Shown: positions 5,373 to 61,812 of the stretch, piece by piece | Layout of the letters: each line of letters begins with the position of its first letter | How positions within the stretch are numbered: the first letter of the stretch is position 1 | DNA from: an uncultured Pirellulales bacterium | GTDB taxonomy: Bacteria; Planctomycetota; Phycisphaerae; Sedimentisphaerales; CAYZTY01 | DNA: 64,000 nt | Assembly (NCBI GenBank): GCA_964444665.1 | Contig: CAYUIE010000003.1 | Coordinates: 110,280 to 174,279 of the forward strand | Direction: 5' to 3' | Notes under the pieces: model-generated | Seen by the model: the letters and a program-made list of their open reading frames with translations, nothing else | Told to the model about the DNA's origin: nothing | The model's database searches: none | Made by a program: the position numbers and the translations under genes

Positions 5373-5434
5373 CTTCAGGCTACCTCTTTTCTGACAGTGT
5401 TAAACTCTCAGGAAAACGAAACTTTCCAACTCTA

Positions 5435-5462
5435 TTATCGGATTAAAACCATAATATCTTAA
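5435..5462 (-). promoter_or_regulatory. Sigma-28 (FliA)-type promoter candidate upstream of fliD
   Basis: The minus strand reads TAAGATAT-N11-TCCGATAA against the consensus TAAAGTTT-N11-GCCGATAA (5/8 and 7/8). It lies about 65-90 nt upstream of the fliD ATG. Confidence 0.45.
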
Positions 5463-5495
5463 GCAACTATTTCATAAATTAAGTCTAAACAGAAG

Positions 5496-8400
5496 CTAAC
5501 GAATCGCCTGTAGTGTTGGCTGCCTGCATTGAGTCTGCAAAAGGATAGTATTTTGCAAAAGCCGCTGGGCAAATTCATTATTCGGGTTCACTTTCAGATA
5601 ATCTTTTAACTCCAAATGGGCCAAGTCAAAAGCCGTCCGAGCACAAACACTCGAGTTTGATTTTATATAAGACTGACCTATTTTAAGATAAGTTACAGCA
5701 GCAAGACATTTAGCATGAGATTTTCTTGTCTCAGGAGCTATTTTGTCCCACCCAACATCAGGAAATAATTCGTCATATGAGAAGGTTTCCGTAAACCGCC
5801 TGACAACTTCAAAATGGCTCCTGGCTTTATCAATGTTCGTAGATCCTGACAGGTTTTTCAGATACATTCGTCGCAAATGCAAGGTCTCCTGTAAATGATG
5901 TTCTTTAAGACCGGCCTTTACGAAACGTCTCATCATATCATAGTCTTCACCTACCAAAAGTGTTTCATCATAAAGACCGATTCTATCGAAGACGCTCCTT
6001 CTTATGCCGAATCTAAAGGGTATTACAGGGTGTCCTTGTCGGAACAGGTCTCTGATGAGTAACTTGCGATTCTGATATTCGGGCTTTTTCATTATCCTTA
6101 TCGGTTCACCATCGGCGTCAATCAATAAGACATCGCAATAAATAAGGTCGGCCTGTGGATGCTTATCAAATTCCTGCAGGTGCAAAGTTATGAAATGCGG
6201 AGCCATCACATCATCGGCGTCCAAAGGCATGATATATTGTCCCCGGGACCGGATAATTGCATGGTTTCTCGCGCTAGACACACCACCATTTTGCTTAAAA
6301 ATATATTTAATACGATCATCATTGTATTTTAGTACCACCTTTTTGGTATTATCGGTGGAGCCGTCGTCAACAATTAACAACTCAAAGTTTTTATAGTTCT
6401 GGCTCAGGACACTTTCAATTGCCTGGCCAATATAATCGGCACCATTGTAAACAGGTGTTATTATGCTAACCATTGGTTTACTTGAGCTGTTCCGGCGACA
6501 TAGGCTCTGTTTATCATTTACTAATTGTTGGGAGACAAGGTCAACCGCTGAATCCGAATGCGTGATAAGAGCATTAATTTCCCCAAGCATATTAAGCACC
6601 CGGGCATCTTTACCAACATTTGCCAAATAATTAAAAAGAAGTGTTTGGGCTTTCTTATATTCACCGGAAGTTTTCATAATTGCATAGCAATTAGTGATAG
6701 TATCCCTGTTCCATGGATTGAATTTGTATGCCTTAGTAAAGTAGCTTAAAGCTTTTTTTATATCTCCTGCTTCCATCGCCACCAATCCAAAGTCATTCAG
6801 TGCCCTGATGTGGTTGGGAAATTTTTCCAGCAGTTCATCGACTTGTGCATTAGCTTTTAGCCAGTTTCCCTGCTGATTCATAATCAGTGCCCGCAATAAC
6901 AGCACATCAGGATGATTCGGGTGTTTCTGCAATAACTGCCCGCATTTAAGGTCAGCTTGTTGAATATCATTATCATGGAGTAATGTCCGGATATCGTTAA
7001 CCTCCCTGGCGATACTGATTCTGTCCCAGAGCTTTGAAATATATTTCCCAGCTATGTCTGTACTGAAATTCTCTCGCACAAAATCAACCGCTTTACAGCG
7101 AATAGAAGGGTTGTTGTCGACCCTATTTAAGCAAGCGATTATTGCCTCTGCCAGTTTTTCAGGTGTATTATGTGAATATATCAGGCCTGTACATCCATCA
7201 GCTATAGTAGCAGCCGTACCTCCAGCATTATGAGCAACAGGAATACACCCGCATGCCTGTGATTCCAGTGTAACCATCGGAAAAGTTTCAAGCTTAGAGG
7301 GCAGGACAAGTAAGCTGTGCCTGGAATATATTTCCGGCATATCTTTATTGTTAGCATAGCCGTGAAAATACGTGCCTTCCGGTTTTGTGCCTTTGAGTTT
7401 ATCTCCATAGGCATCTCCACCACGCCACATTGAACCATCCCCATAAATGTGCAGTTCGGCATCACTTATCTGCCGGCGGACCAATCGGAAGGCATCTATG
7501 AGAATATGAACACATTTATGCTCATGTAATGCACCAGCATACATTATAGAGTGGCCATTTCTGCTAACATCTTTTGGCGAATATACATCGGTATTAATAA
7601 GATTAGGAATAATCATTAGCTTTTCATCACCGATGACATCATTGTGCAGCGATACCCTGTGTAAATCCGACAAACAAATCACTATGTCGAAATCGCTCAT
7701 ATGTGATAACGATACGAAGTCTTTGGCCTGCCAACAGTGCTGCCACAGTACCCAAATTTGTCCTCTGGGCTTGGTCAAACCTTTGAAGTAGCGAACGTGG
7801 GTTGCGAAGAAAACCATATCAAAGTTTGCAAGGAACTCTGCTCTTTCATTTGGTTTCGGCAACGGAATAATTTTTAAGGATTCATATCGCTCAGGATGAC
7901 ATACGAGATCCCCGGTTATATGAACCTCTATATCGGGGTTTTTTTGAAGCATTTTTGCAATATTCAGTACAGCTATTACCGTTCCTGCAGGACTAGTTTC
8001 ACTGATGTTGCCTATTCTATCATAATAGAATAGTATCTTTTGCTGACCAACTACCGGTGATAAAAGATCTTGCGCCCAATCAAAATCAGGCCTGATGCTT
8101 AAGAGCTTCTCCAAACTGTCACGTGCTCCAGCAAGGTCATCTTGATTTTTCTGTAACATCATCAAGGCAAAGGATGGCTGCCAATCACCTTCTTTAGCCC
8201 GTTCAGCAGCTACCTGATAATCTTCCAATGCTTCATGGATTTGCCCCATACATCTCTTTTTTAATCCCCGCCAAAAGTACGCCAGGCCACATTCAGGATA
8301 CTTCTCAATTGCCTTGTTTATTTTCTCGTATAAATCATCCGGACAAGTTGCAATCTCCTGCCAAGCCCGAACCAAATGCGAAGCCGGAAACAAATCAGGA

Positions 8401-11400
8401 TGACAAGTAGCAATAAATGCCCAGGCTAACTTTAAGTTACCCTTAATTGTCTTATGATACATACTCTGAGGATTTACCCGGTAGAGGAAAAGAGGTTCGC
8501 TTATCCGCCTGACAACGGGATTGTGCTTGGAACAGCTTATCCAGAAATTCCAGTCTTCCGGCTGAACAATAACGTTTAACAAATTATCATATCCACCAAC
8601 TTTGCGCCAAAGATGTTTTCTATAAAGGGACGCGTAAGGCATGGTATTCTTAACCATAACCTGTGAACGGGAATACTCTTCAGGCGCCCATATCTTATTT
8701 GAAGCCCCAAACTCCTGCAGGTTAGCAAAAACTATATCCACATTCTGTTCCTGCTGAATAATATCCACAGCCTTTTTCATAAATGTCGGTTCAAACATAT
8801 CGTCACTATCCAGCGGTAAAATCCACTCATTCGCAGCAGCCAATATCGCTGTATTTCTCGCATCCGCCAATCCGGTATTTTGCGGCTTGTCGATAAGCCG
8901 AATCTTATGATTTGGATACTTTTCTATTAACTGCCTTGTGACCTCAACAGTATTATCAGTACTGCCATCATTGACAATAACGCATTCCCAATTTTTATAC
9001 GTTTGATTTATAATAGACTCAACCGCATCAGGAAGATGATGAGAATGGTTGTAGCACGGGATAACTACAGATATTCCAACCGCGTTGTCATCAGCTTGGT
9101 TGAAATAAAAGCTGACTTCCTGATGAGCTGCATTGCTGACAAATCCAGAATATTTGCTTACGTCAATAACCGCTCCCCGCTGATAAATTTGCGCTAATCT
9201 TTGAGAGCTATAGTTAACATTCACGCCCGACCTGTTCTGCTCATATACATTTTGAACTATATTGGCAGGATTGCAGAAAGTTACACTTTTACGGTAGCAA
9301 AGCAGCATTGACCGGTTATTCCTGAACTGTCTGTTTAAAGCCAACTGTGATTCCAGCAAGTTTGGATTTGAAAAACATCGTCCTGACAAAAAACCTAACA
9401 TTTCCTGCGAGCGGTAAATCGAACTTGAGACCTCCAGCGGATAACCATAATCATGCTCGGCTGTTGTCCAATTAAACTTTAGTATGGAATCTGTTACACG
9501 TTCAAACTGTGGGCGTTTCTGTTCGGTATTAAGTGAGTAACAATAAGTTGTGTTTTCTCCCAAACGAAGTGAAAACCCAATCGCGTCAGTCTCACGCTTC
9601 AATGAGTCCACCACATCTCTGATGGAAAAGTCGCAGGTATATATGTTATCATCCACCATAAACACAATATATTTAGACGCCCCTATTACCTGTAGTGTCT
9701 GCTGTCTAAAATTCCGCTCTTCAATAAAGTCAATATTCTTGAAACATTTTTTCAAATCTTCATATTGGCCTTTATGCAATGGGGAAGTGGTTTTGTAAAG
9801 TACTGTAATATCGAAATTGTTACTGTCTTTACAATGCAACAGAAAAGATTCTATTGTTGCTCTAAGTTGCATTGCCCTATCCTTACTGAAGACCAGAACG
9901 GCAGTATTCTTTTCGGGCTGTTGTTCACTCTCCTTCTGAACATCCTGTGCCCCATCGGCTTGCGGTATTTGTACCAGGCTTGGGGTACTCGATACGCTCT
10001 TATTACGTCGCAACTGCAGGTAAAGCTCCTCATACCTGTCAGCCACAGCTTCCCAAGTAAGGTTTTCCTTCCACTCCTTCCATCCGTCTTCCGCGAGACT
10101 CTTACGGATAATCTCGTCATTCAGTATTTTGTTCGCATACAACGGCATTTTATCAGGCGCACATACAACGCCGCCTTTCCACTCGCGCACATTCCCGCAA
10201 TCAGTGGAAACAAAAGGAGTTCGTGACGCCTTTGCTTCAATAATTACCAGAGGTGAACATTCCTTATCAGAGCCAAATAAGAATATATCCGCCTGACAAT
10301 ACGCCGCTAAAGTAACTTCCCGCGGAACATCGACCAAGAATCTTACATTCAATCCCCTCGCTTTTGCCTTAAGCCCATTGAGTAAAACACCCTGCCGGCC
10401 AATAAATACCATCGTAAGGTCAGGCCTGTTCATTTTCCGCAGGCACTCTATAACTCTGTCCTGCCCTTTGCCTGGAAAAAAGTTAGCAACACATAAACCT
10501 AAATACTTAGTCTTAATTTTATATTTCATGCGAAAGTCAAATGTCGGCATCTGTGAGAATTCTTCTTCGCACACACCATTTGGAATTATTACGCTATTAT
10601 TAAACCCATAATTCTGAGCAAATTCGTAATCCTGATATTGTTTCGAGTGATAAACAGCCGCATCATATTTAGGCAAATATATTGGTATCACTCTGTTGAA
10701 ATAATCCGCGAATTCCGGTAACTGCAGTGTATTATTGTCGCTAAGTGCTGAATAACCGCAAGGCGCTATTATATTAATCCTCCTTTTGCTTGTTTGTTCC
10801 AATGTACCAAGCGCCAGGTCTGTGGCCCACTGCTGAGCTGCGTAATTAAACACAACATCAGCCTGATGATTAAGGAGAAATTGCTGGTAGCGGTCAACGT
10901 CATTTCCACTGAATCCTTTTGCAAACGCCCCGCTAATATTAAATTCTTCTATACGCACCCCATTTAATTCTTTAAATGTCCGCTCAGCCAGCTTTGTTGT
11001 TGCAACTGTCACCTCGTGCCCGCGTTTAACCAGCCATTCTGACAGTTGCTGGACCACCTTTTCAGAGCCACCAATATGTGGTTCGTAAAACTCCACTGTA
11101 TTGAGTATTGACAGTTTATCTCTCGGTTTGGAGCCGCTTTTGGTCGGACGTGATTTATATAATTGTCTCCCTTCTCGTTTGTGTAATCTGTAATTCTCTC
11201 GAATTCTATCAGCAGCTTCCATAACTTCGCTCGCATGTGTGTTGCCGATACTTTTCGGATGTAAACGAATTCTGTGTAAAACTTCAGGGATATTTGCCAA
11301 CTCAAAGTCGGCCAATAACGCCCGGGCAAAAAAATCATAATCCTGTGCAACTGGGTATTCTTTGCGGTAACTTCCAATTCTTTTAAATACGTCCCTACGT

Positions 11401-14400
11401 ATCAATGATGCACTATGAATCATCGAATTTAATTTGTCGAACGTCTCACGAATTCGTTCGGGCTGCCATTCTATGGTGGGTTGTCCCTTACTGTTACCTT
11501 CATCATCAAAATATTCGGCGAAACAACCAACTACTGCTATTTCAGGACGAGTTTCAAGATACCCAACCAATCTTTCAAGTTTTGTCGGCAGGGATATATC
11601 ATCACTATCGTGGTTCATCAAATATTTGGAGTTGGGACTGCAATTTCTAATAGCTTCATTTCTTGCTTTAACAACCCCGACGTGAGACAGTTCTATTATT
11701 TTAATCCTACCATCATTTTTTTTATAGCTCTTTAAGATATCTATTGTTCCATCTTCAGAACCGTCATCAGATACGACTATTTCATAGTTCTTAAAGGTTT
11801 GATTCAAAATAGAATCAAGTGTCTTGGCCAGATATTTTTCTGAATTATACACCGCCATATAAATCGAGACGGCTGGAGAATTGTATCCAAGACCTGATGA
11901 ATAAGAATTTGATTTAATAAATTTAAATTGTACTTCCTGATGGCACGATGAAGGGATGAAGTTAAGAAATTTGTTTATGTCGATTCCGTGCCCGTCATCA
12001 TACATCCTGGCAAGATTATTAGAGGAATATTCTCTCTTGTTTCCGCTTCGATTATCAGGAAAAACATCCTGCACAACATTAACTGGATTACAAAAAGCAA
12101 CAGAGCACGGGAAACAAAGAAGATTTTTCCTGCTATCAGCAAAAGTGTCTTTACTTAGAGCAATTTCAGCTTCTAAGGTGTTTGGGTTTTGAAAATCCAA
12201 TTTAGTTAATAAAGGCAAAATATCATGAATTCTATAAATAGAACTGGATACTTCTAACGGATAACCAAAATAACCATTTGCACCTGTCCAGTCATATTTT
12301 AATACTCTTCCTCCTACATTTATAAAAGATGGTATTATCTGCTCTGAGGAGGATGGGTAATGGTAGTTGATATTCTTTCCCAAGCGTAAAGAGAAACCAA
12401 GAGTATCCGAATTTTTTTGTAATGCTTCGATTATTTCCGACAAACAGAAATCTTTAACAAAAATGTTATCATCCACCAGGAAAAGTACATATTGGAAATG
12501 CTTGAGATTAGATAACAATTGCTTTCTAAAATCATTTTCCTCAATAAACTCAATGAATTTGTATTCCCTAATTAGTTTATTATAAGATTCTTTATGATAG
12601 TTATTGGAAACTTTATAAATCACCTTCAAATTCACATTCTGCAGGTCTTTGCAATTCAATAGAAAAGACCGTATTGTAACATCCAACTGCATGGCCCTGT
12701 CTTTACTGAAAATTACACCATTAACCAAACCTGATGAGCAGGTCGTACCAGATTCATCATTATCCGGTCTGGTGAGAGGCAGCGATTTTTTGTATCCAAT
12801 CAAGTAATGGTTATCGGGAAGATGTGCGATTGGATAGCTTTCCCAGGCAAGATCAATTTTGCTCTTAGCCAAGCGGCGAAAATAATGAATATTGTTAATC
12901 TGGCCAAACTGGTTCTGATATGCAATTAGATAATAATCGGCCCTTGAAACAAGTTCGAATACGCGGTCTCTGATTTCCACAGGTGCCTCGCTCATCGACC
13001 ACAATGCAATAAAAGCACAATCTGCAGCTTTGTGATTTAGCTGCTCAGACAATTTGTTCATATCAGAAATCAAAACTATTCTGGTGGGGGCATCAGAGAC
13101 ATCACCATAGCTAATGTACCGCTGAAAACCTACGCAACTAAGAAAGTATTCCTGCAGTGCGCTTAACTCCGGCAGGTCATAAATAATGTAACGTCCTTTA
13201 AAACCCAGCTGATAAGCCAGTCTGCACATGCTTCCATAGCCGCCGCCAAATTCCACAATTTCAGCCAACTGATCTACCTGACATTCAGCTTTTTGCTCCA
13301 GTTGCGCAAGACTATACGCGTGATGTATCAGGTTACCACTGCTTTCAAGATATGGCCCATATAGCTTTGGATTACCAATCTGGGACTCTCGAATGGCCCT
13401 GTGCCATCTGTCCCAATCAGGCAGACTCTGTAAAAACTGCAACTCTTCAATTTTAGCTTCATGGAACATCGTTGCTACAATGGGCTGCCAATTGAGAAAA
13501 TTGCTGAGGTCATCATTCAATATCATTTGACGAATACTATTTCTACGTTCAATCCATTTAGCCTCAATCCTGGAGCTGTTCACATCAGTGGAAACAGAAC
13601 AATCAATTTGCTTTATTCTTTTTCTAAGTAACTGGGCATGCTGCTGAGACTTAGTTTTACGAGTCTGTTGCAAAGCAGCAAAAAGTTTTCGTATCAGTTC
13701 GTTTTGTGGATGTGCCCGAATAACTTCACGCTTTATTTCTTCGGCGATTTGAGTATTACCCTTAGCGTACTCGGAGCGGGCAAGATAGAATTTAATTCGC
13801 CAGCGATCGAGCCCAAGGTTAATAGCTCTTCTGTATTCATCCGATGCCTGCCGGTAACGTCCCTGTGCCTCCAGCGATAATCCATTCCAAAACATATATT
13901 TCTGCTCTGCATAAAATGCTCGTCTTTTAGCGCTCAAATCAGCAAATTTTTCATGCCCAAGTTTTTGTAATGTTTCTTCCGCCTGCAGTACTTCCTGGAT
14001 AGTTCTTTCGTTACAACCCCCAAAATCTGAGGCGCTTATCAAACACAGTTTAAAAACGTCAGTATATTTACTGGGATGCGCAATTGCGGTCATCGTATTT
14101 CTATCAAAGTTTTTATTAACTTTTTTCTCGCAAACGTTAAAAAGAACACTATAAGGATTAAACTTTATTTTGAAACCTGCCCGCTGAACTCTTCGGCACC
14201 ATTCAACATCTTCACCTTCGCGATGGAAAAGCTCCTCATCTAAATTATATTTCAGAAACAACGCTTTTTTCGTAATAATCTGTGCACCATCGACCCACAT
14301 TGTAAGGTCCCAATCGTTGTGGTCTAAATTACAGCCCACGTATTTACCGTTGATTGCAGTTGCAACCAGCGCATCGTTGTGCTTTTCTCTGCCGTCAGGT

Positions 14401-17400
14401 GAAAATACTCCGCAATACTGAATCACCCAGTCATCGCCAAACTTTCTCATTCCTTCGTACCAGCCGGCAGCTAACCTGATGCGGTCATGGAGAATACACA
14501 TGTTTTCATAAGTGGCATTGGCTGCAACGATATTCTTTTTCTTAGTCAACCATCCCTTATCATCATTTTCACTAAACTTGATGTATCTTACAGGATATCC
14601 GGATGGATTAGCATAAGTGCCGCAGACGATAATCTCGTACTGTGGTATGTTCTGGGCGATAATGCTTTCGATAAGTTCATTTACCCATGCATCACGTTTG
14701 CCATTTGTAATAATTCCAAAACTCCATCGGCCTGTTTTGGTGTTCTGATGTGGATATAAATCTGAATGTTCTTCAACGCAATTATAGTATTGATGAATAT
14801 ATCTTTGTTCTAACTGTCTTCCGGTAATACCATTGTGTTTCTGCTCATAAACGGTGTTATAAAATGAATGAATTCCTAAAGAGTTATTAAGAAAAAGAAT
14901 ATTTTTACCTGTATTTTGCGAATAGCGGTTCAGAGGTACCTCATCAAAAGAATCGTAACTAAGTGATCTGTCATTTATTATTTCCTGGTAAGTTGGCAAT
15001 TTAATGGCAAAAAAACTATTGCAAAAATATGGCCTGTTTTCTTGCATCGGCTTGAAAGATGAGCCGCTTATGCTGTTGAAAAATAAGTTATAAAGCCGGG
15101 CAATTTCCTGATTAATATACACTTGGAACTTTATATTCACCCTGAATGGGTGTATTCCTTTATAGACACATTTGAGCTTTCTGACTTCGTTCCAGTAATT
15201 ATCTTCGTCCCATTCAGGATTTTTATCCAAATAACTGTTTAAGTTAGAATAGTTTGTTCCCCACAAACAATCAGGGACATTTATTCCTTTCAACATATCA
15301 TACAATAAACTTATTTTTTCTTTAGGAAACAGTAAGTTTATAAATTCAAAGGCTGAAGGGATGCCTGTGCTTAGGTTAACAGTAGTGGCTAAGGAATTAT
15401 CCTGTTCCAAAACGTCGGGAGAATGCTTTATGAACTTGCGCCAGGAGTCAGGTGATATAAAAATATCCTCATCTGCCTTTATTAAATACTCAAAGTTATT
15501 ATATTCAGTAAGAACAACCTTGATTTTGTCCAGATAACTGAGTCCGTTAAAGTATCCTGTATGAATGTCAAAGATTGTGGAAAAGGGTTTAATGAACTCC
15601 TCAAATTCATCGGAATTTTTGTCATTGGAAAATGCGAAGATTATCCGTCCGGGGAATTTTTCATTTTTGAAGGCAGCGTAGAAGTGCAAAAAAGCGGTTT
15701 TAATACTTTCTATGGTTCTAAGATGCGGCAAAAACAACAGCAAATATTTGCTGTTCGGCTCTTCGAGAGCTGAATTAGTATTAGCAGTAGAACTATCTGT
15801 ATTGGCTAATTCAGAAATCAAATTTTTACCCTTTATACTTGAAGTAGATAACTCCTGCCTCGGAAGTTTCTTACTCAAGTATTCATTGCCCGCGTTCTCA
15901 TATTCCGACCTCTTGAACGTTTGCATGTGCCTCTTATATTGGTTGATTCCGCAATCAAACAGGGACTTAGGCTTTACCGAACTGTTCATCCCAATCCAAA
16001 ATTCAGCGTTGTGTCTCAGCGACAAAACATGGTTAGCGTCAGGATTGGTAATATCTTCTATCTTAGGTAACTTTCTTATATAATCTGACTTTGACCACCA
16101 AAAATTTCCGGAAAAATGCGGGACAGGTTCGGTTCGCCAATCAACACCGCAGGTATCATAATCGTTTAAGTTCCTTAAACAGTCTTCATATCTTTCAACA
16201 TTGAAATAAGTCATATATTCTCGCCAATCAGTGATGGCTTCAATATATTGTTTGTCGGCTGATACACCTTTGGTATGGATATAGAGTATTTTGTAGCATG
16301 GATTCTCAACTGCAAATCGTCGTAATTCCTTTAATGTATCGAATTCAAATCTACTTAAATCTCCGTTTTGGTACAGAATTTTAACCTTATTTAAATTCAA
16401 GTTGTTTACCGGCCGATTGCCGACTATTCCGACAAATAGTCCGTATAGTAAATCATATAGTCCGCTCTTTTGTATGGCGGTTATAAGTTCGTCAACTACG
16501 TCTTGATAGTTCCCAACGGTTGCGACATGAAGAAAGACAACACACTTATCAATGGAGCTTGTTTTTGGCAACTTCATCAGGTTTATATTGAAGTTCTTTT
16601 TCTCAACCTCCACATATTTTTCCGCGATTTTTACACTCTTGTCGTAAATTAAGCCATGAAAAGGTTCCAGATCTCTAATGATATTTTTTTTACCGATGAA
16701 CGGGAAAGGCGAATAGATATCATATTTGTCTAAATCACTACCTTTGTCCAAAGCTTCCATTAGTATTTGATCTAAATGTGCTGTCTCAGATTCTGTAAAC
16801 TTTTTTGTCAGGTGGTCTGTGCCAAAAATTTTAGATTCGAACAGGCTGTTTATGGCTGTCCCATCATTTTCCAAACAGTCGTATGCGAATGAAATCTTAT
16901 TACCTATTTGAACACCCCAAAAGCCCTTCTCAAGGAACTGGTCTGCTAACTTCATCTCTCCATCATGATCATCGTTAAACTGCCAGTCAATGGTTCCTAA
17001 AGTACTTGTTTTTGCGAACCATATAGGCGCTCTTGAATGACTGGGTGCAAAATACTTGGTTCCACTCAGATTGTTCATTATTTGAGGGCTGACGAAACCA
17101 ATTCTCTCATGGTGGTCCAATAGTGTAACAGCCTTTAAAAGCCAATTATCGGATTTAATAAACACGTCATCGGAGATAAAGGCGAAATATTCGTACAGGT
17201 GCTTATATTTGTTAAAATAAAATCTATAAGCCCCAAAGGCTTTATGAGGGATGTCATTGCCATTTATGTCTATTTTGTTCTCATAAATAATTCTTCCATA
17301 TTTATTAAAAACATTATCCTTATTTACGCCCTGGAAATTTCGATGAACGAATATTATGTCATGATGAATGCCTGGCTCGCAGTTATGGTACGTTGGCCAA

Positions 17401-17459
17401 AAACATGAATTTTGTTTTTCGCTGCCTCCTAAGAAGATTATCGCAGTGTTGTTTTTCAC
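5496..17459 (-). CDS. Giant multi-module glycosyltransferase / methyltransferase / TPR fusion protein (3,987 aa)
   Basis: Uninterrupted ORF. Motifs read by eye: three classical GT2 N-termini (SIYMAVYNSEKYL..VVSDDGSEDGT; VVIPCYNHSHHL..IVNDGSTDNT; SIITPVYNGADYI..IVDDGSTDNT); one GT-A-like block (FGIITNGKRD..YEIIVCG); two GT-B/GT4-like blocks (FYEPHIGGSEKV.. and ..ETFPMVTLESQACGCIPVAHNAGG); a class-I SAM methyltransferase motif (IVEFGGGYGSMCRLA); a duplicated FSKDRAMQL module; three further N-terminal DxD-type modules; and several TPR-like stretches. Confidence 0.85.
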   Translation of the reverse strand: MKNNTAIIFLGGSEKQNSCFWPTYHNCEPGIHHDIIFVHRNFQGVNKDNVFNKYGRIIYENKIDINGNDIPHKAFGAYRFYFNKYKHLYEYFAFISDDVFIKSDNWLLKAVTLLDHHERIGFVSPQIMNNLSGTKYFAPSHSRAPIWFAKTSTLGTIDWQFNDDHDGEMKLADQFLEKGFWGVQIGNKISFAYDCLENDGTAINSLFESKIFGTDHLTKKFTESETAHLDQILMEALDKGSDLDKYDIYSPFPFIGKKNIIRDLEPFHGLIYDKSVKIAEKYVEVEKKNFNINLMKLPKTSSIDKCVVFLHVATVGNYQDVVDELITAIQKSGLYDLLYGLFVGIVGNRPVNNLNLNKVKILYQNGDLSRFEFDTLKELRRFAVENPCYKILYIHTKGVSADKQYIEAITDWREYMTYFNVERYEDCLRNLNDYDTCGVDWRTEPVPHFSGNFWWSKSDYIRKLPKIEDITNPDANHVLSLRHNAEFWIGMNSSVKPKSLFDCGINQYKRHMQTFKRSEYENAGNEYLSKKLPRQELSTSSIKGKNLISELANTDSSTANTNSALEEPNSKYLLLFLPHLRTIESIKTAFLHFYAAFKNEKFPGRIIFAFSNDKNSDEFEEFIKPFSTIFDIHTGYFNGLSYLDKIKVVLTEYNNFEYLIKADEDIFISPDSWRKFIKHSPDVLEQDNSLATTVNLSTGIPSAFEFINLLFPKEKISLLYDMLKGINVPDCLWGTNYSNLNSYLDKNPEWDEDNYWNEVRKLKCVYKGIHPFRVNIKFQVYINQEIARLYNLFFNSISGSSFKPMQENRPYFCNSFFAIKLPTYQEIINDRSLSYDSFDEVPLNRYSQNTGKNILFLNNSLGIHSFYNTVYEQKHNGITGRQLEQRYIHQYYNCVEEHSDLYPHQNTKTGRWSFGIITNGKRDAWVNELIESIIAQNIPQYEIIVCGTYANPSGYPVRYIKFSENDDKGWLTKKKNIVAANATYENMCILHDRIRLAAGWYEGMRKFGDDWVIQYCGVFSPDGREKHNDALVATAINGKYVGCNLDHNDWDLTMWVDGAQIITKKALFLKYNLDEELFHREGEDVEWCRRVQRAGFKIKFNPYSVLFNVCEKKVNKNFDRNTMTAIAHPSKYTDVFKLCLISASDFGGCNERTIQEVLQAEETLQKLGHEKFADLSAKRRAFYAEQKYMFWNGLSLEAQGRYRQASDEYRRAINLGLDRWRIKFYLARSEYAKGNTQIAEEIKREVIRAHPQNELIRKLFAALQQTRKTKSQQHAQLLRKRIKQIDCSVSTDVNSSRIEAKWIERRNSIRQMILNDDLSNFLNWQPIVATMFHEAKIEELQFLQSLPDWDRWHRAIRESQIGNPKLYGPYLESSGNLIHHAYSLAQLEQKAECQVDQLAEIVEFGGGYGSMCRLAYQLGFKGRYIIYDLPELSALQEYFLSCVGFQRYISYGDVSDAPTRIVLISDMNKLSEQLNHKAADCAFIALWSMSEAPVEIRDRVFELVSRADYYLIAYQNQFGQINNIHYFRRLAKSKIDLAWESYPIAHLPDNHYLIGYKKSLPLTRPDNDESGTTCSSGLVNGVIFSKDRAMQLDVTIRSFLLNCKDLQNVNLKVIYKVSNNYHKESYNKLIREYKFIEFIEENDFRKQLLSNLKHFQYVLFLVDDNIFVKDFCLSEIIEALQKNSDTLGFSLRLGKNINYHYPSSSEQIIPSFINVGGRVLKYDWTGANGYFGYPLEVSSSIYRIHDILPLLTKLDFQNPNTLEAEIALSKDTFADSRKNLLCFPCSVAFCNPVNVVQDVFPDNRSGNKREYSSNNLARMYDDGHGIDINKFLNFIPSSCHQEVQFKFIKSNSYSSGLGYNSPAVSIYMAVYNSEKYLAKTLDSILNQTFKNYEIVVSDDGSEDGTIDILKSYKKNDGRIKIIELSHVGVVKARNEAIRNCSPNSKYLMNHDSDDISLPTKLERLVGYLETRPEIAVVGCFAEYFDDEGNSKGQPTIEWQPERIRETFDKLNSMIHSASLIRRDVFKRIGSYRKEYPVAQDYDFFARALLADFELANIPEVLHRIRLHPKSIGNTHASEVMEAADRIRENYRLHKREGRQLYKSRPTKSGSKPRDKLSILNTVEFYEPHIGGSEKVVQQLSEWLVKRGHEVTVATTKLAERTFKELNGVRIEEFNISGAFAKGFSGNDVDRYQQFLLNHQADVVFNYAAQQWATDLALGTLEQTSKRRINIIAPCGYSALSDNNTLQLPEFADYFNRVIPIYLPKYDAAVYHSKQYQDYEFAQNYGFNNSVIIPNGVCEEEFSQMPTFDFRMKYKIKTKYLGLCVANFFPGKGQDRVIECLRKMNRPDLTMVFIGRQGVLLNGLKAKARGLNVRFLVDVPREVTLAAYCQADIFLFGSDKECSPLVIIEAKASRTPFVSTDCGNVREWKGGVVCAPDKMPLYANKILNDEIIRKSLAEDGWKEWKENLTWEAVADRYEELYLQLRRNKSVSSTPSLVQIPQADGAQDVQKESEQQPEKNTAVLVFSKDRAMQLRATIESFLLHCKDSNNFDITVLYKTTSPLHKGQYEDLKKCFKNIDFIEERNFRQQTLQVIGASKYIVFMVDDNIYTCDFSIRDVVDSLKRETDAIGFSLRLGENTTYCYSLNTEQKRPQFERVTDSILKFNWTTAEHDYGYPLEVSSSIYRSQEMLGFLSGRCFSNPNLLESQLALNRQFRNNRSMLLCYRKSVTFCNPANIVQNVYEQNRSGVNVNYSSQRLAQIYQRGAVIDVSKYSGFVSNAAHQEVSFYFNQADDNAVGISVVIPCYNHSHHLPDAVESIINQTYKNWECVIVNDGSTDNTVEVTRQLIEKYPNHKIRLIDKPQNTGLADARNTAILAAANEWILPLDSDDMFEPTFMKKAVDIIQQEQNVDIVFANLQEFGASNKIWAPEEYSRSQVMVKNTMPYASLYRKHLWRKVGGYDNLLNVIVQPEDWNFWISCSKHNPVVRRISEPLFLYRVNPQSMYHKTIKGNLKLAWAFIATCHPDLFPASHLVRAWQEIATCPDDLYEKINKAIEKYPECGLAYFWRGLKKRCMGQIHEALEDYQVAAERAKEGDWQPSFALMMLQKNQDDLAGARDSLEKLLSIRPDFDWAQDLLSPVVGQQKILFYYDRIGNISETSPAGTVIAVLNIAKMLQKNPDIEVHITGDLVCHPERYESLKIIPLPKPNERAEFLANFDMVFFATHVRYFKGLTKPRGQIWVLWQHCWQAKDFVSLSHMSDFDIVICLSDLHRVSLHNDVIGDEKLMIIPNLINTDVYSPKDVSRNGHSIMYAGALHEHKCVHILIDAFRLVRRQISDAELHIYGDGSMWRGGDAYGDKLKGTKPEGTYFHGYANNKDMPEIYSRHSLLVLPSKLETFPMVTLESQACGCIPVAHNAGGTAATIADGCTGLIYSHNTPEKLAEAIIACLNRVDNNPSIRCKAVDFVRENFSTDIAGKYISKLWDRISIAREVNDIRTLLHDNDIQQADLKCGQLLQKHPNHPDVLLLRALIMNQQGNWLKANAQVDELLEKFPNHIRALNDFGLVAMEAGDIKKALSYFTKAYKFNPWNRDTITNCYAIMKTSGEYKKAQTLLFNYLANVGKDARVLNMLGEINALITHSDSAVDLVSQQLVNDKQSLCRRNSSSKPMVSIITPVYNGADYIGQAIESVLSQNYKNFELLIVDDGSTDNTKKVVLKYNDDRIKYIFKQNGGVSSARNHAIIRSRGQYIMPLDADDVMAPHFITLHLQEFDKHPQADLIYCDVLLIDADGEPIRIMKKPEYQNRKLLIRDLFRQGHPVIPFRFGIRRSVFDRIGLYDETLLVGEDYDMMRRFVKAGLKEHHLQETLHLRRMYLKNLSGSTNIDKARSHFEVVRRFTETFSYDELFPDVGWDKIAPETRKSHAKCLAAVTYLKIGQSYIKSNSSVCARTAFDLAHLELKDYLKVNPNNEFAQRLLQNTILLQTQCRQPTLQAIR

Positions 17460-17544: not shown

Positions 17545-18336
17545 CTATCCTGCAATATTAGAATTACATAAAATCTTCTCGGTAAACGAACGTGTAGCTT
17601 TTTCTGATACAGGCAATTTCTCGAACTTTTTCAAATCCGACGGAGTACCTAATCCATACATTCCATCAGCTTCCCGGCCGATGTTGTAATAGATAATTTC
17701 CATTCCATCTGCAATCATCTCATTATAAGCCGGAGCTACATAAAACTCGTTGTTCACCCTTAAATTTTTAGCAATCATCCTTTCAGCCGCATGGACAAAA
17801 TCAGCGCCTCGGCGATAATTGTAAATTCCAACCGTAGCTTCATTAGATACAACCTGTTTTTCAACAACAGCACGAATTTCCCCTGATTCATCAAAACAAA
17901 GATACGACCATTTAGAGTCATTCGCCCACATAGTCATGATAAGTCCGTCAGCATTGCCAGGTTCTATAACTTCCAAATATCGGTTAATATCAATGTCCAC
18001 CCATTGGTCACTATTAGCAATCATCAAAGGAGTATCGTTATCGATAAAACTCTTTGCCAGCAACAGGGTACATGCGGCACCTTCAGTCACACCATCCGTT
18101 AAAACAATTTTGCAATTGGGCGCCCAAGCTTCGAGTTTTTCATCAATATGATATTTTTGCAAATGCTCGCTCAAACATATGAAAATGAACCTGTGTTCCT
18201 GCACAGGACACAAATTTTTAATTACAAGACGCACCATAGGAATACCTCTGACCGGAATCAAAGGTTTGGGCAGAGTGTATCCGGCACTTAGAAAGCGGCT
18301 GCCCCTGCCGGCCATAGGGATAACGATATTCAGCAT
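17545..18336 (-). CDS. Sugar- or alcohol-phosphate nucleotidyltransferase (NTP-transferase fold)
   Basis: N-terminus MLNIVIPMAGRGSRF..LPKPLIPVRGIPM matches the G-x-G-x-R nucleotide-binding signature. I prefer the ATG at 18336, 1 nt after the cupin stop codon, over the longer ORF start at 18402. Confidence 0.7.
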   Translation of the reverse strand: MLNIVIPMAGRGSRFLSAGYTLPKPLIPVRGIPMVRLVIKNLCPVQEHRFIFICLSEHLQKYHIDEKLEAWAPNCKIVLTDGVTEGAACTLLLAKSFIDNDTPLMIANSDQWVDIDINRYLEVIEPGNADGLIMTMWANDSKWSYLCFDESGEIRAVVEKQVVSNEATVGIYNYRRGADFVHAAERMIAKNLRVNNEFYVAPAYNEMIADGMEIIYYNIGREADGMYGLGTPSDLKKFEKLPVSEKATRSFTEKILCNSNIAG

Positions 18337-18337
18337 G

Positions 18338-18664
18338 CTATTGACCTCTCTGATATTTGTCGTTATTGGCACCAGGAATTTTAACAACAACATTAACCGC
18401 ATCTTCCAGCGCTTTGAAATCTGTGGCTTCGCCCGGCTCCATCACGATAATATCACCTTCTTTGTGGACAATCCCATTCATTTCAACGGTACCACAAATC
18501 ATCACCGTTATTTCAGTAGCGATTTTGTGATGATGTCTTTCTTCCCCATCGCCTGCTTTATAGCTTTTAACCGCAACTTCCACATCATTGGTTTTATAAA
18601 GAGACGGCTCAAAATTCCCTACAAACCAGCCGTTCACCATATCTTTTAGTTTTGCCGTCTTCAC
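18338..18664 (-). CDS. Small cupin-fold protein
   Basis: 108 aa with a His-rich metal-site-like string (GEERHHHKIATEITVMICGTVEM) and PGE..F, typical of the cupin_2 barrel. The substrate is unknown. Confidence 0.55.
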   Translation of the reverse strand: MKTAKLKDMVNGWFVGNFEPSLYKTNDVEVAVKSYKAGDGEERHHHKIATEITVMICGTVEMNGIVHKEGDIIVMEPGEATDFKALEDAVNVVVKIPGANNDKYQRGQ

Positions 18665-18705
18665 AATTATCCTTTAGTGATATCCGAATAAGTTATTCAT
18701 GAGAA

Positions 18706-19440
18706 TTACAACCTGATACGCTGTTCGTACTCTTTGATTTTTTGAGGCATATAGAACGTATGGTAATTCTCATTGCAAATAATGTATGTCTCAAGGTTCA
18801 TATTCTTTAATATCATTTCATTGAGTGTCGGGGCTATATAAAACATCCCATCGAAGCTGGCGTTTTTCTTTATGTTTTCCATCGCAGCACTGACGAAATA
18901 ATGACCCTTTTTGAAGTAGTAGAAGCCGGCTATCGCAAGTTTGCTCAGGGGTTTCTTTTCGGCAGATTCGACAATCTTGCCGTTGCTATCCAGTCTTACA
19001 TAAGACCACCGAGGATGTATGGTTTCAAAACATATCACAGCCGCATCCAGATCTCTGAGCTCGAAGTGATTAATAATATGATTAAGGTCCTCCTCAATAA
19101 TCTGGTCACTATTTGATATCACCAGCGGCTGGTCATTATCAATGTGCTCTATTGCCATCAATGCACTGCATACCGCCCCTGCCGTATTGCCCCGTAAACG
19201 TACGATTTCGCAGTTCCCATCGGTTATCAGCCTCAAAACATTATCCAGATGATACTTCGAACAGTCTTCTATCCTGACCACAAAGATAAACTTCTTTTCC
19301 CTGTCGATAGTATTAAGGTTTTCGACCGCCAATTGAACCATCGACTTGCCGCCAATCTCAATCAATGGTTTTGCGAACGGATATTCAGACGAGTCAAAAA
19401 ACGTTGACTTCGCTCCTATGGGCATTAATATATTCAACAT
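18706..19440 (-). CDS. NTP-transferase-like protein with degenerate nucleotide-binding loop
   Basis: Its layout parallels the 17545-18336 product (MLNILMPIGAKSTFF..AKPLIEIGGKSMV..ISNSDQ). The G-x-G-x-R loop is replaced by IGAKSTFF. Confidence 0.5.
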   Translation of the reverse strand: MLNILMPIGAKSTFFDSSEYPFAKPLIEIGGKSMVQLAVENLNTIDREKKFIFVVRIEDCSKYHLDNVLRLITDGNCEIVRLRGNTAGAVCSALMAIEHIDNDQPLVISNSDQIIEEDLNHIINHFELRDLDAAVICFETIHPRWSYVRLDSNGKIVESAEKKPLSKLAIAGFYYFKKGHYFVSAAMENIKKNASFDGMFYIAPTLNEMILKNMNLETYIICNENYHTFYMPQKIKEYEQRIRL

Positions 19441-20071
19441 CAGTCCCGTCCTCTATTTCATGAATCCGATTCATGATATTAACATAATTAACATCTTCGA
19501 CGTCATTAACCTGCAAAAGATGCGCACCGCTGGACAGTGCTGCCTTGATACCTTTTTCATTATCTTCCACTATAAGGCACTCATCAGGCCCCAGACCAAG
19601 CCGTTCAATCGCTGCAATGTACATCTCAGGGTCTGGCTTTGGCTTTGAGATGTCCTGGTTTGAAAGATAAAAGTCCAGATATTGAATCAGGTTGGCCTTC
19701 GTTACCATTGTTTCAACGCTTTTCCTTACCGAGTTCGAGCAGACAACCAGCCGATATCCTTCATTATGCAATTTACTCAAAGCATATTCATGATAGAATG
19801 CCGGCTTGCACCGCGTATAAGCCATCTCCATTGTGTATTTTTGTTTTAGGTCATTAATGAAATTATGAAGCTTATTCGGAAGTCCCTGCTCCAGCGACAG
19901 CATTTTCAGTTTTTTTCGCGTCGGCAATCCATCATATGTAACCAAATGGTCATATCTGCTTATACCCATACCAAATGGCTTCAAGGCCTTATTTAACGCC
20001 TCGTAATGCCAATCTTTCGCGTCAATAAGCACTCCATCCATATCGAATATCACCGCTTTTATCTTACGCAT
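19394..20071 (-). CDS. HAD-superfamily phosphatase / phosphomutase-like hydrolase
   Basis: HAD motif I AVIFDMDGVLID, motif II VCSNS, and motif IV-like VEDNEKG. Its 3' end overlaps the next gene by 47 nt. Confidence 0.8.
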   Translation of the reverse strand: MRKIKAVIFDMDGVLIDAKDWHYEALNKALKPFGMGISRYDHLVTYDGLPTRKKLKMLSLEQGLPNKLHNFINDLKQKYTMEMAYTRCKPAFYHEYALSKLHNEGYRLVVCSNSVRKSVETMVTKANLIQYLDFYLSNQDISKPKPDPEMYIAAIERLGLGPDECLIVEDNEKGIKAALSSGAHLLQVNDVEDVNYVNIMNRIHEIEDGTDVEYINAHRSEVNVF

Positions 20072-20696
20072 CGAAATATTCCTTCGCTTTTTCAGGCTGG
20101 TCCGTGCAAATCATTAATTTCCCATTCTTTAGTTTTCCATCAATCGTTTTGTAATCATTCCATTCCGATTGATTCTCTCTGCCATGAATTTCCGGTGAAA
20201 CAATACACACTTTTTTACCCGTGTTTATATGCCCTGTTATCACGGACTCGTCAGACCAGTGCGCATGAAACTCATCCAACCATACTCCATCCGCATTTTT
20301 GTAAAAGCTCGGTTCATGTTCATACTCACTTTGTCTGGTAAAGACTTTAAATCCCTCCTGCAAGTAGCCCAATCCGTCTGGAACGGACATATCAAAAACA
20401 AAATAGTTTTTTATCTCATACTTTTCGAGCAAAGCCTTGAGCCTTTGCTGTAATCCGGCAGCTTTGATGTTAAGAGCCAAAGGCAACATCTTGCTAAATC
20501 CACGATACAGCCCAAAAAAGCTTTCGACTCTTATACAATCTCGGTTCGCAATGTTATGACTGATTACAAGTTCGTTCTCATAGTCCCTGATGTCGGTCTC
20601 GGTACCAAAACCCATATTAAAAGACCGCTCAAACGCAACAATCTGATTCTTCTCGGAAATATCTTTCCAATATCCTCTATGAGATATTATTATCAT
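20064..20696 (-). CDS. Glycerophosphodiester-phosphodiesterase-like (PLC-like TIM barrel) protein
   Basis: IISHRGYW..EKNQIVAFERSF..GFGTETDIRDY.NELVISHN resembles the HRG..EN..AF..E.D...D..VV.HD signature of the GDPD family. Confidence 0.5.
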   Translation of the reverse strand: MIIISHRGYWKDISEKNQIVAFERSFNMGFGTETDIRDYENELVISHNIANRDCIRVESFFGLYRGFSKMLPLALNIKAAGLQQRLKALLEKYEIKNYFVFDMSVPDGLGYLQEGFKVFTRQSEYEHEPSFYKNADGVWLDEFHAHWSDESVITGHINTGKKVCIVSPEIHGRENQSEWNDYKTIDGKLKNGKLMICTDQPEKAKEYFDA

Positions 20697-37506: not shown

Positions 37507-38943
37507 ATGAATTTACGTATAGTCGTTGCGGTAACTAAGGAAACGCACATCCAGCAGTTAGCCCGACGTATTGGCCAAGACATATTTGTAGCCGATAACA
37601 TAGCTGAAGCTATAGACATTATTCAGACTGTCAGCCCGGATTTAATCCTATTTGATTATCATTTTACTCCAAGACATATCCACGAATTTCTCAATACGAC
37701 CTATAATAATTCGATAAATGTCCCCGTTGTGGTTGTTGGCAGTGATGAAACTAATGCAGGCTTGGTCAACGAATTCAAACAGATGGGTATTATCGACTAT
37801 GTGAACGGGAAACAAGAATACGGCCGACTGGAGCAAATCGCACAACGGATAAAACAACAACGCAAGATTCCCAGCGACAAAAATATCAACGACTTTTTCT
37901 TTGAAGACTTCGCAGCTTCTATTTCTATGGTCGGTAAAAGTTGCGCAATCCAAAATACTTTAAAGATGATTAAACTTGTCGCCGCCAGTAGATGTAACCC
38001 GGTTCTGATAGTTGGTGAAACAGGTACCGGCAAAGAATTAGCTGCTAAGGCGGTACACATTTTAAGGTGCCCAAATGAGCCCTTTGTAGCTGTAAATTGT
38101 GCTGCCCTTACAGCAAATTTGCTTGAAAGTGAACTTTTCGGCCACGTCAAAGGCTCCTTCACCGGTGCTGACCGTGATAAAACAGGTCTTCTTGAACTGG
38201 CTGGTAAAGGTACCCTCCTGCTTGATGAAATCTCTGAAATGCCAATGGAACTACAGGCAAAGCTGTTACGGATTATTCAAGAAAAAAACTTTCGAAAAGT
38301 AGGAGGTACTAAAACTATCACCTGTGACGCTACAATAATAGTCACCAGCAACCGTGATTTACACAAGGAAATCCAAAATAATCACTTTCGCCGTGACCTA
38401 TACCATCGCCTAAATATCAGCCCCATAGCTATCGCTCCTCTCAAAGTACTCCAGAGAAAAGAGGATATCCCCCTTCTGGCTGAGTATTTTCTGAGGACAT
38501 CGACAATTTGTCCTGAAAAACAGAATAAAATAAAATCATTAACCAAGATGGCTATGGAAGCTTTGGAAAAATACGACTGGCCTGGCAATGTCCGAGAACT
38601 TCATAATGTTATTGAAAGAGCGATACTGATAGAAACAACAGACAAAATCGGTCTTAGAAGTATTGTAATTAATCCTATGGAATACGCACTTAACACTAAT
38701 AAACCGACAAGAAGCTACATAAATAATTTTTCATTGGCAAAGGCTGAACGAGAGTTAATTTGCCGGGCTTTGCGAGAAACCAGCTGGCAAAAAACAAAAG
38801 CAGCCGCCCTTCTCGGAATAACCAGAGCGACCCTATACGCAAAGGTCAAGCAATACAACATTAAAAAGGGCATATTTGTCGAAAAAGAGCCGCAATATGA
38901 GGAACCAGCCTCCCTGCTGTCTGAGCCAATATCTGCTGCATAG
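37507..38943 (+). CDS. Sigma-54-dependent transcriptional activator (FleQ/FlrA-like: atypical receiver + AAA+ + Fis-type HTH)
   Basis: Walker A GETGTGKELAAKAVH, GAFTGA-type loop KGSFTGAD, Walker B LLLDEI, and C-terminal HTH AAALLGITRATLYAKVKQY. The N-terminal receiver-like domain lacks the acidic pair after beta-1 (VVAVTKE). Confidence 0.85.
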   Translation: MNLRIVVAVTKETHIQQLARRIGQDIFVADNIAEAIDIIQTVSPDLILFDYHFTPRHIHEFLNTTYNNSINVPVVVVGSDETNAGLVNEFKQMGIIDYVNGKQEYGRLEQIAQRIKQQRKIPSDKNINDFFFEDFAASISMVGKSCAIQNTLKMIKLVAASRCNPVLIVGETGTGKELAAKAVHILRCPNEPFVAVNCAALTANLLESELFGHVKGSFTGADRDKTGLLELAGKGTLLLDEISEMPMELQAKLLRIIQEKNFRKVGGTKTITCDATIIVTSNRDLHKEIQNNHFRRDLYHRLNISPIAIAPLKVLQRKEDIPLLAEYFLRTSTICPEKQNKIKSLTKMAMEALEKYDWPGNVRELHNVIERAILIETTDKIGLRSIVINPMEYALNTNKPTRSYINNFSLAKAERELICRALRETSWQKTKAAALLGITRATLYAKVKQYNIKKGIFVEKEPQYEEPASLLSEPISAA

Positions 38944-58324: not shown

Positions 58325-58339
58325 AAAGCCTTTCTCTTT

Positions 58340-60083: not shown

Positions 60084-60097
60084 ACTTACTATCTTTT

Positions 60098-61705: not shown

Positions 61706-61812
61706 ATATGTGGCCTATGGCTCTTAAGAAGTACCTTGGAATTATCTGCACAATCTTAAAAACAAACTATACCTCACTTAAAAGACATTCCTTAAGAGCT
61801 TTCGTTTCTTCT

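Follow-up and report, generated by a model that had tools for sequence, protein, structure and literature searches.

A widespread precursor cassette in a flagellar gene cluster of an uncultured Pirellulales bacterium, and the activated sugar it may supply

What does a compact set of five genes supply when it sits among flagellar genes, next to a gene for a giant glycosyltransferase? The set in question lies at 17545–20696, minus strand, in a 64,000-nucleotide (nt) stretch (the window) of contig CAYUIE010000003.1 from an uncultured Pirellulales bacterium; the window belongs to a JGI metagenome contig 335 kb long. This cassette encodes two proteins with the nucleotidyltransferase fold (NTP1 and NTP2), a cupin, a HAD hydrolase and a protein resembling glycerophosphodiester phosphodiesterases (GDPDs). 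With about even confidence, we read it as a mobile module that would provide a dedicated transferase with a nucleotide-activated sugar of an unusual kind, its product most likely ending up in the flagellar (flagellin) glycan. The flagellar destination is suggested by the position of the cassette between flgL and fliD and by the fusion, within the neighbouring giant protein, of transferase domains that elsewhere occur as separate neighbours of the cassette.

Five genes between flgL and fliD

The first cassette gene (20064–20696, minus strand; 210 amino acids (aa)) encodes a GDPD-like or PI-PLC-like TIM-barrel phosphodiesterase, as predicted from a fold model. It is followed on the same strand by a HAD-IA hydrolase of the beta-phosphoglucomutase/sugar-phosphatase clade (19394–20071; 225 aa; HAD_2, E = 1.5e-34), by NTP2, a nucleotidyltransferase-fold paralogue with an altered signature loop (18706–19440; 244 aa; PF00483, E = 1.2e-11), by a small metal-binding monocupin recognized from fold model and motif (18338–18664; 108 aa, GTG start), and by NTP1, a canonical sugar-phosphate nucleotidyltransferase (17545–18336; 263 aa; PF00483, E = 1.6e-12, intact MAGRGSRF loop). 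The GDPD-like gene runs 8 nt into the HAD gene, which in turn shares 47 nt with NTP2, while 1 nt separates the cupin gene from NTP1 and 85 nt separate NTP1 from the giant gene. An earlier note, made from the sequence before any database search, had described five tightly packed or overlapping genes here, with two NTP-transferase-fold proteins, a cupin, a HAD and a GDPD-like protein: all open reading frames (ORFs), their strand and coordinates were verified, the 47-nt overlap was measured again at the same figure, and profile searches together with AlphaFold2 and Foldseek agree with the gene content. JGI's own gene calls on the source contig give the identical five products. Because the five ORFs are conserved at 60–78% identity across thousands of proteins, we regard them as real, selected genes.

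To one side of the cassette lie genes for FlgF, FlgG, FlgA, FlgH, FlgI, FlgN, FlgK and FlgL, then a GT1 glycosyltransferase with tetratricopeptide repeats (TPRs), a GT2-TPR protein, a TPR protein and a weakly matching FliT-like protein. After the FliT-like gene come the cassette, the giant gene and then fliD, which places the cassette between flgL and fliD. The arrangement of FlgK, FlgL, FliT-like and FliD genes with TPR-glycosyltransferases is conserved in a locus of another uncultured Pirellulales metagenome-assembled genome (MAG), L007.

The giant gene (5496–17459, minus strand) encodes a multi-glycosyltransferase/TPR protein of 3987 aa. Its C-terminal half carries three GT2 domains, two GT1/GT4 domains and TPR blocks, and its N-terminal ~1860 aa are almost without Pfam annotation (JGI gives DUF8361). 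We compared this N-terminal part with the neighbours of the cassette in other genomes, for which one genome per species was scanned; 167 loci were returned, and gene order was compared in the best 80. Three of its segments have counterparts there. Residues 571–891 (14787–15749, minus strand; no Pfam match) share 40% identity (E = 1e-57) with an ORF of 368 aa that lies directly upstream of the cassette in L042, a Chitinophagaceae MAG. Residues ~909–1117 (14109–14735, minus strand) form a GT-A-like domain, here called c19, that matches at 1.6e-63 a hidden Markov model (HMM) built from stand-alone proteins neighbouring the cassette in other genomes; by BLAST the segment is 38–41% identical to cassette-adjacent ORFs of three loci (L012, L086 and L032), and it gives a weak Glyco_tranf_2_3 signal. 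We consider the c19 domain a candidate transferase for the cassette product. Residues ~1258–1557 (12789–13688, minus strand), the c75 domain, match at 2.7e-51 an HMM from cassette-adjacent ORFs of L031 and L068, with 34–35% BLAST identity to the ORF directly after NTP1 in L031.

Since separate ORFs next to the cassette in other phyla match these three N-terminal segments, the giant protein looks like a fusion of formerly separate transferases, and the same resemblance suggests that the cassette is functionally tied to its N-terminal third. Of 79 loci compared, 61 have a WavE-like, c11/14 or c19 protein beside the cassette. The three families are nearly exclusive (WavE-like in 29 loci; c11/14, an unnamed family with a weak DUF7796 match, in 22; the GT-A-like c19 in 11). 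No stand-alone member of any of them occurs in the window, where c19 is present as a domain of the giant protein. From sequence comparison, the region appears to be a precursor cassette that a flagellar glycosylation island has recruited and that is coupled there to a giant fused glycosyltransferase.

Protein families and candidate chemistry

Both NTP proteins score above the gathering cut-off of PF00483 (NTP_transferase; 47.9 bits for NTP1 and 45.1 bits for NTP2, cut-off 21.2), and NCBI labels both 'glycosyltransferase family 2 protein'. The G-x-G-x-R signature loop is kept in NTP1 (IPMAGRGSRF) and altered in NTP2 (MPIGAKSTFF). Across the NTP2 family the consensus P.AG.S.FF replaces GxGxR, and K24, N.DQ, EK.P and an AIAGFYYF segment are conserved. 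Both proteins retain the K, N.DQ and EK(P/Q)..S..A..G.Y.F elements, the last of which we take to be typical of sugar-1-phosphate enzymes. NTP1 and NTP2 are paralogues (37% identity; HHalign between the families, E = 4.5e-95). The best solved relative of both is 4EVW, an uncharacterised Vibrio cholerae protein, which is the best Protein Data Bank (PDB) match of NTP1 (1e-16) and of the NTP2 family profile (1e-26). HHalign against the 4EVW/BcbE-like family gave 99.8–99.9% probability for NTP1 and NTP2, but at E = 1e-30 for NTP1 this family is far more distant than the two are from each other. NTP1 and NTP2 therefore appear to be sister families of the 4EVW/BcbE-like group.

At two loci the NTP2 and NTP1 genes are fused in frame, on plasmid AZO_p6 of Azospirillum lipoferum 4B (L087, 10336–11949; 537 aa) and on a Rhizobium rhizoryzae plasmid (L094, 8396–9880; 494 aa). 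In both, the cupin is absent and a third, more distant NTP-like ORF follows the fused gene. Because the two are joined in one protein in Azospirillum and Rhizobium (a Rosetta-stone pattern), NTP1 and NTP2 probably act together. The simplest model this suggests would be a two-subunit enzyme with one catalytic and one degenerate subunit, similar to the paralogous pairs GalU/GalF, GMPPB/GMPPA and the small and large subunits of ADP-glucose pyrophosphorylase, in each of which one member is degenerate. NTP2 differs from the degenerate members of such heteromeric pyrophosphorylases in keeping several catalytic-site residues, and could act on another substrate.

The HAD protein matches HAD_2 at 120 bits (1.5e-34) and has the FDMDGV motif, and it stays below the curated cut-offs of the beta-phosphoglucomutase (beta-PGM) family TIGR02009 (109.5 bits against 153) and of bPGM (88 against 189). 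Its best PDB matches are the sugar phosphatase TM_1254 and beta-PGMs, consistent with a beta-PGM-type mutase or a phosphatase, two activities that sequence does not separate. The exact 47-nt overlap with NTP2 recurs in four other loci (L007, L059, L068 and L073, from Pirellulales, Bacillota and Elusimicrobia MAGs and from Sporomusa), because in these the HAD occurs in a long form of 224–225 aa. Automated estimates of this overlap above 47 nt are unreliable, owing to a stop-extension artefact, and the exact 47-nt cases alone were counted. The overlap and the altered loop of NTP2 (IGAKSTFF) had both been singled out as oddities in the earlier note. Both are present, but neither reflects local degeneration: the overlap recurs in at least four other lineages, and P.AG.S.FF is a family-wide feature.

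The GDPD-like protein had no Pfam match (including GDPD, PF03009) and no NCBIfam match at E ≤ 0.01, and a PDB sequence search with it was near-empty. Its AlphaFold2 model (pLDDT 94) has GDPDs as its top Foldseek matches in the PDB (2o55, 2pz0 and 1zcc; TM 0.64–0.76, E 1e-8, 12–18% identity), and the family profile aligns its HRGYW, GxExD and xxHD motifs to the GDPD 3NO3 (E = 0.001). Residues H6, R7, E33, D35 and H47 are invariant among 32 homologues; the usual E-x-K third-ligand motif, read off the sequence, is N76-I-K78. The model and motifs together predict a TIM-barrel GDPD fold with catalytic and metal-binding motifs. The gene abuts or overlaps the HAD gene in most loci compared. The cupin likewise had no Pfam, NCBIfam or PDB sequence match, and two of its homologues carry PF07883. 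Its AlphaFold2 model (pLDDT 82) matched generic small monocupins in Foldseek (TM1287, KdgF and TM1459). Metal-binding motif 1 is perfect (G-X5-H-X-H-X4-E-X6-G; GDGEERHHHKIATEITVMICG), with H44, H46 and E51 invariant.

Do these families make up a known pathway? None of the NCBIfam equivalogs for RmlA, GalU, GlmU, ManC, HddC, MurU, IspD/TarI and IPCT reached its curated cut-off. The best was rmlA_long with 50 bits against 320, and others lay further down (HddC 17.5 against 300, IspD 15.4 against 181, mannose-1-phosphate guanylyltransferase 19 against 440). GDP-heptose, CMP-Kdo, dTDP-rhamnose, MurU/MupP recycling and IPCT were each considered and rejected, with scores far under cut-off and the SIS, kinase and SDR partners missing. 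Among the scanned ORFs of the window, no NeuB/PseI, PseB/PseC dehydratase or aminotransferase, SDR, CMP-sugar synthetase or Maf protein was found. These profile scans agree with the earlier note, which had seen no PseB-, PseC- or NeuB-type motifs in the window and had proposed a precursor set outside the pseudaminic and legionaminic acid (Pse/Leg) pathways, open to reassignment to GDP-heptose or CMP-Kdo; homology searches assign it to neither. Its further claim, that nucleotide activation is the central chemistry, is supported.

Joined into one route, the metal-binding cupin would isomerise a sugar phosphate; the beta-PGM-like HAD would shift the phosphate to the anomeric position, or alternatively act as a phosphatase; NTP1 would be the catalytic nucleotidyltransferase, depending on NTP2 as an obligate partner, much as in the pairs GalU/GalF or GMPPB/GMPPA; and the GDPD-like enzyme would hydrolyse a phosphodiester, either feeding the pathway or recycling a by-product. 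The GDP-mannose pathway shares the logic of a cupin isomerase followed by a phosphomutase and an NTP_transferase-fold enzyme, phosphomannomutase is a HAD-family enzyme in eukaryotes, and ManC-type structures are among the PDB matches of the NTP proteins. The cassette differs from that pathway in that its HAD is of the beta-PGM type and that it adds a GDPD-like enzyme and a second NTP paralogue.

The most serious rival follows LicC/TarI/Gtp2-like logic, as the earlier note had it. The GDPD-like enzyme would release sn-glycerol-3-phosphate or the phosphate of a polyol or amino alcohol, the HAD would act as a phosphatase, a phosphotransferase or a 3-to-2 phosphomutase, and NTP1 would make a CDP- or other nucleoside diphosphate (NDP)-linked alcohol to be added via a phosphodiester. 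The GDPD fold with its catalytic motifs intact speaks for this, as the canonical GDPD product is glycerol-3-phosphate; so does the tight coupling of the GDPD-like and HAD genes (the 8-nt overlap), which suggests consecutive steps, and the relatives of the HAD include the polyol phosphatases HxpB and MtlD. There is also a flagellar precedent in the CD0241/CD0242 model: for the type A flagellin glycan of Clostridioides difficile, the HAD-type phosphotransferase CD0241 and the nucleotidyltransferase CD0242 are proposed to act through CDP-threonine (PMC10714395). Like the cassette, the genes of C. difficile type A and Pseudomonas aeruginosa type b (CD0240–CD0244) are a HAD plus NTP-transferase flagellin-glycan set without nonulosonic acids. 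They differ in having a phosphoserine-phosphatase/ThrH-like HAD, a TagF-like phosphotransferase and a methyltransferase, and their product is a phospho-linked N-methylthreonine. TagF-like and methyltransferase domains are absent from the cluster studied here, and the two sets have only the generic HAD and NTP-transferase superfamilies in common. More broadly, neither the window nor the recurrent neighbours of the cassette, which are GT-A-like or WavE-like, contain any TagF-, LicD- or CDP-alcohol-transferase-type domain; the NTP_transf_3/IspD-type models stay below their cut-offs and the RmlA-, GlmU- and GalU-type models score best; and the nearest relatives are 4EVW/BcbE-like, BcbE being tied to a sugar (fructose). 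With such relatives and neighbours, alcohol-phosphate activation is less favoured, and we judge it unlikely, though a rival to be taken seriously.

A module shared across phyla and its Campylobacter copies

Relatives of the GDPD-like protein (n = 3679) are spread across phyla, most of them ~60–65% identical, and those of the cupin (n = 2975) are 70–78% identical. The gene order GDPD-like, HAD, NTP2, an optional NTF2/SnoaL gene, cupin and NTP1 is found in ~70 of the 80 loci, at 40–88% identity, and because cupin-seeded contexts give the same set as GDPD-like-seeded ones, the pattern is not an artefact of seeding. The invariable core consists of the GDPD-like protein, HAD and NTP1; the cupin is absent from L032, L058, L080 and L082, and NTP2 from a few loci including L083 and L044. 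The carriers span at least ten phyla and include Campylobacter, Helicobacter, Aliarcobacter, Sulfuricurvum, Pedobacter, Algibacter, Polaribacter and Chitinophagaceae, as well as Nitrospira, Brocadiaceae, Gemmata, Nostoc, Sporomusa, Geobacter, Elusimicrobia, Verrucomicrobiota and Cloacimonadota. Plasmids of Azospirillum, Rhizobium and Ruegeria bear copies, and P. aeruginosa has one on a conjugative IncP-2 megaplasmid. The region therefore appears to hold one copy of a widespread, horizontally transferred precursor module and no flagellum-specific invention. In gut metagenome contigs (L090/L091, 8465–12529), a 1354-aa protein fuses ferredoxin/FrhB-like, polysaccharide pyruvyl-transferase and WavE domains; it lies two small ORFs from the cassette and adjoins several phage-integrase genes, and may mark a capsule locus that is invertible or mobile. 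In the collection, 240 blocks contain the cupin found on these contigs.

Most loci elsewhere are O-antigen, capsule or lipooligosaccharide (LOS) loci, with rml, Wzx/Wzy, ABC exporter, glf and waaL-like genes. A flagellar context was shared with 1 of the 80 loci only, L007, whose cassette is the nearest relative (83–88% identity). The earlier note had made its reading depend on co-conservation with the flagellar glycosyltransferase genes in related genomes; such co-conservation does not extend beyond these close relatives, whereas the flagellar use it envisaged for this copy fits the position between flgL and fliD beside TPR-glycosyltransferases. Could the cassette and the glycosyltransferases beside it act on a glycoconjugate other than that of the flagellum, such as lipopolysaccharide, capsule or another glycoprotein, and simply be located within the flagellar cluster? 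Nearly all other genomes carry the cassette in O-antigen, capsule or LOS loci, and the window contains another glycan island, one that encodes GT-C enzymes. Set against this are the FlgK, FlgL, FliT-like, FliD and TPR-glycosyltransferase flanks conserved in L007, and the recurrence of TPR-glycosyltransferase contexts elsewhere: a TPR-GT41 protein, of the protein-glycosyltransferase type, flanks the cassette in Desulfuromonadaceae and Geobacter MAGs and in Azospirillum. We give a non-flagellar destination a low probability. In a Nitrospirota MAG, the cassette is followed by a TPR protein that also matches the WavE-like HMM and then by a giant-like multi-domain protein.

The best-described copies are those of Campylobacter jejuni, where the cassette lies in the capsule locus of IA3902 (HS1/8), CJSA_1357–CJSA_1362, and is shared with HS65 (PMC7901785, Table 4). 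The products are listed there as a 'dTDP-glucose pyrophosphorylase', a 109-aa unknown (the cupin), a 111-aa 'ketosteroid isomerase', a 241-aa 'glycosyl transferase' (NTP2), a 219-aa HAD and a 212-aa unknown (the GDPD-like protein); the function of the set is given as unknown, and a second capsule was not detected in IA3902 (PMC7901785). It is the same cassette as in the window, to which a locus of C. jejuni GP013 (L081) aligns at 43–68% identity, but it stands in a capsule locus and not a flagellar one, has the extra NTF2/SnoaL gene and adjoins a BcbE/F-like module. In L081 this module directly follows the cassette (4827–7476) and comprises a BcbF-family HAD (132 aa; above the cut-off of the EcbF/BcbF phosphatase family TIGR01689), a 507-aa kinase-like ORF with a weak APH-type match, and a 4EVW/BcbE-like protein (244 aa), the third NTP-like ORF of the locus, which 4EVW matches at 1.5e-68. 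The BcbF-like gene is absent from the window. In the same locus the GDPD-like gene (1380–2041) includes a G9 homopolymer tract (atagggggggggtat), and its reading frame is broken in the assembly, which suggests a phase-variable, on/off surface modification. Our literature search found no functional study of 4EVW, of this gene combination or of the CJSA locus tags, and in the papers on HS65 and the HS4 complex no structure that would account for the cassette.

The G9 tract also bears on a reading in which the product is a free metabolite, for example a solute of the glycosyl-glycerol type. NTP1 would make an NDP-sugar, NTP2 would be a GT-A-like transferase with glycerol-3-phosphate from the GDPD-like enzyme as its acceptor, and the HAD would dephosphorylate the product. 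The logic of a synthase paired with a HAD phosphatase is known from GpgS/GpgP and GgpS/GgpP, and the NCBI label of both NTP proteins as family 2 glycosyltransferases is in line with it. In most genomes, however, the cassette lies within glycan assembly loci beside dedicated transferases; the G9 tract and broken frame of the first gene in the C. jejuni copy fit a surface antigen; and the NTP2–NTP1 fusion favours a heteromeric enzyme over two separate steps. A free metabolite is very improbable.

Returning to an activated sugar, the Bcb system offers the closest hint to its identity. The InterPro family 'BcbE, predicted' groups ~241-aa proteins with a nucleotide-diphospho-sugar transferase fold (PMC11641403). 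In Pasteurella multocida type B, bcbE and bcbG mutants make a capsule without the fructose side chain, and BcbE/F/G had earlier been predicted to add fructose (PMC13552107). BcbE is the one member of the related 4EVW/BcbE-like family to have been studied genetically, and since fructofuranose side chains require it, the sugar could be a ketose, for example fructose. The BcbE/F/G fructose module of P. multocida types B and E resembles the cassette in combining a nucleotidyltransferase-fold protein with a HAD in a glycan locus. The two differ in that BcbF is a small HAD-IIIC phosphatase (TIGR01689) whereas the HAD of the window is a HAD-IA protein without a TIGR01689 match, and in that the Bcb module, as listed, names no GDPD-like protein, cupin or second NTP. 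The signature loops also differ, reading AGLSSRF in the 4EVW/BcbE-like group, AGRGSRF in NTP1 and AG.S.FF in NTP2.

A more specific variant, which we hold to be distinctly improbable as stated, makes the cassette the missing route to a nucleotide-activated ketose such as NDP-beta-D-fructofuranose. The HAD would turn fructose-6-phosphate into the anomeric 2-phosphate via the 2,6-bisphosphate; the NTP1/NTP2 heteromer would make an NDP-ketose, a labile donor; its decomposition would give a cyclic phosphodiester, which the GDPD/PI-PLC-like enzyme would open again; and a WavE-like, c11/14 or c19 transferase would add the ketose as a branch, here on a planctomycete flagellar glycan. A 6-to-2 phosphomutase together with handling of a cyclic phosphodiester would be chemically coherent. 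To our knowledge, the bacterial activation of several rare glycan constituents, including fructofuranose, is still unexplained, and the roles of BcbE, BcbF and BcbG are likewise undefined.

Several points weigh against an activated sugar, or against its use on the flagellum. The substrate class is left unfixed by the pathway models, all of which stay below cut-off. In a sugar route the GDPD-like enzyme receives an ad hoc role, and the canonical GDPD product, glycerol-3-phosphate, fits the alcohol-phosphate route at least equally well. As each is missing in a few loci, the cupin and NTP2 may be accessory. The assignment of the 4EVW-like group to the BcbE family draws on gene adjacency and on source names ('capsular biosynthesis protein'); a homologue search with the C. 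jejuni BcbE-like ORF returned generic names, with no explicit BcbE label. Because P. multocida adds fructose without the cassette and the two modules adjoin each other in C. jejuni, the Bcb module and the cassette may differ in product. The flagellin (54996–55811, minus strand; 271 aa; Flagellin_N 5.7e-34, Flagellin_C 1.5e-25), adjoined by the gene for FliS (54452–54808, minus strand; 1.9e-40), is the presumed glycosylation target by virtue of gene position. Finally, a scan for sigma-70 promoters and terminators over 16.5–25.2 kb did not exceed shuffled sequence in the number of sites and placed none between NTP1 and the giant gene, so the probable co-transcription of the cassette with the giant gene is read from strand and spacing.

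In this genome a planctomycete-like flagellar glycosylation island appears to have taken over an O-antigen/capsule precursor module in place of a Pse/Leg pathway. The cassette is compact, strongly conserved and widely transferred, yet it is annotated with generic names only, and it occurs in pathogens (the C. jejuni capsule loci, the P. aeruginosa megaplasmid, Aliarcobacter and Helicobacter) as well as in environmental phyla. Naming it as a module connects it to the 4EVW/BcbE-like family and to three candidate transferase families, and gives a defined six-protein set.

Flagellin and other features of the window

The flagellin consists of N- and C-terminal helical domains, essentially without a variable middle domain. 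The number of glycosyltransferases implies an elaborate glycan, for which so short a flagellin would expose little surface. Just past its gene, at 56642–63513 (minus strand), lies a low-GC island (~32% against ~41% elsewhere) that encodes two PMT_2/ArnT-like GT-C enzymes, a GT2 glycosyltransferase, a radical SAM protein and a carbamoyltransferase. By its gene content, this island appears to be a second, separate glycan-modification island. Regulatory genes on the plus strand encode two sigma-54 activators, one with a receiver domain, and a FliA-like sigma factor (37507–38943, 43121–44626 and 49143–49952). AT skew is mostly positive over ~38–52 kb, a stretch whose genes are on the plus strand.

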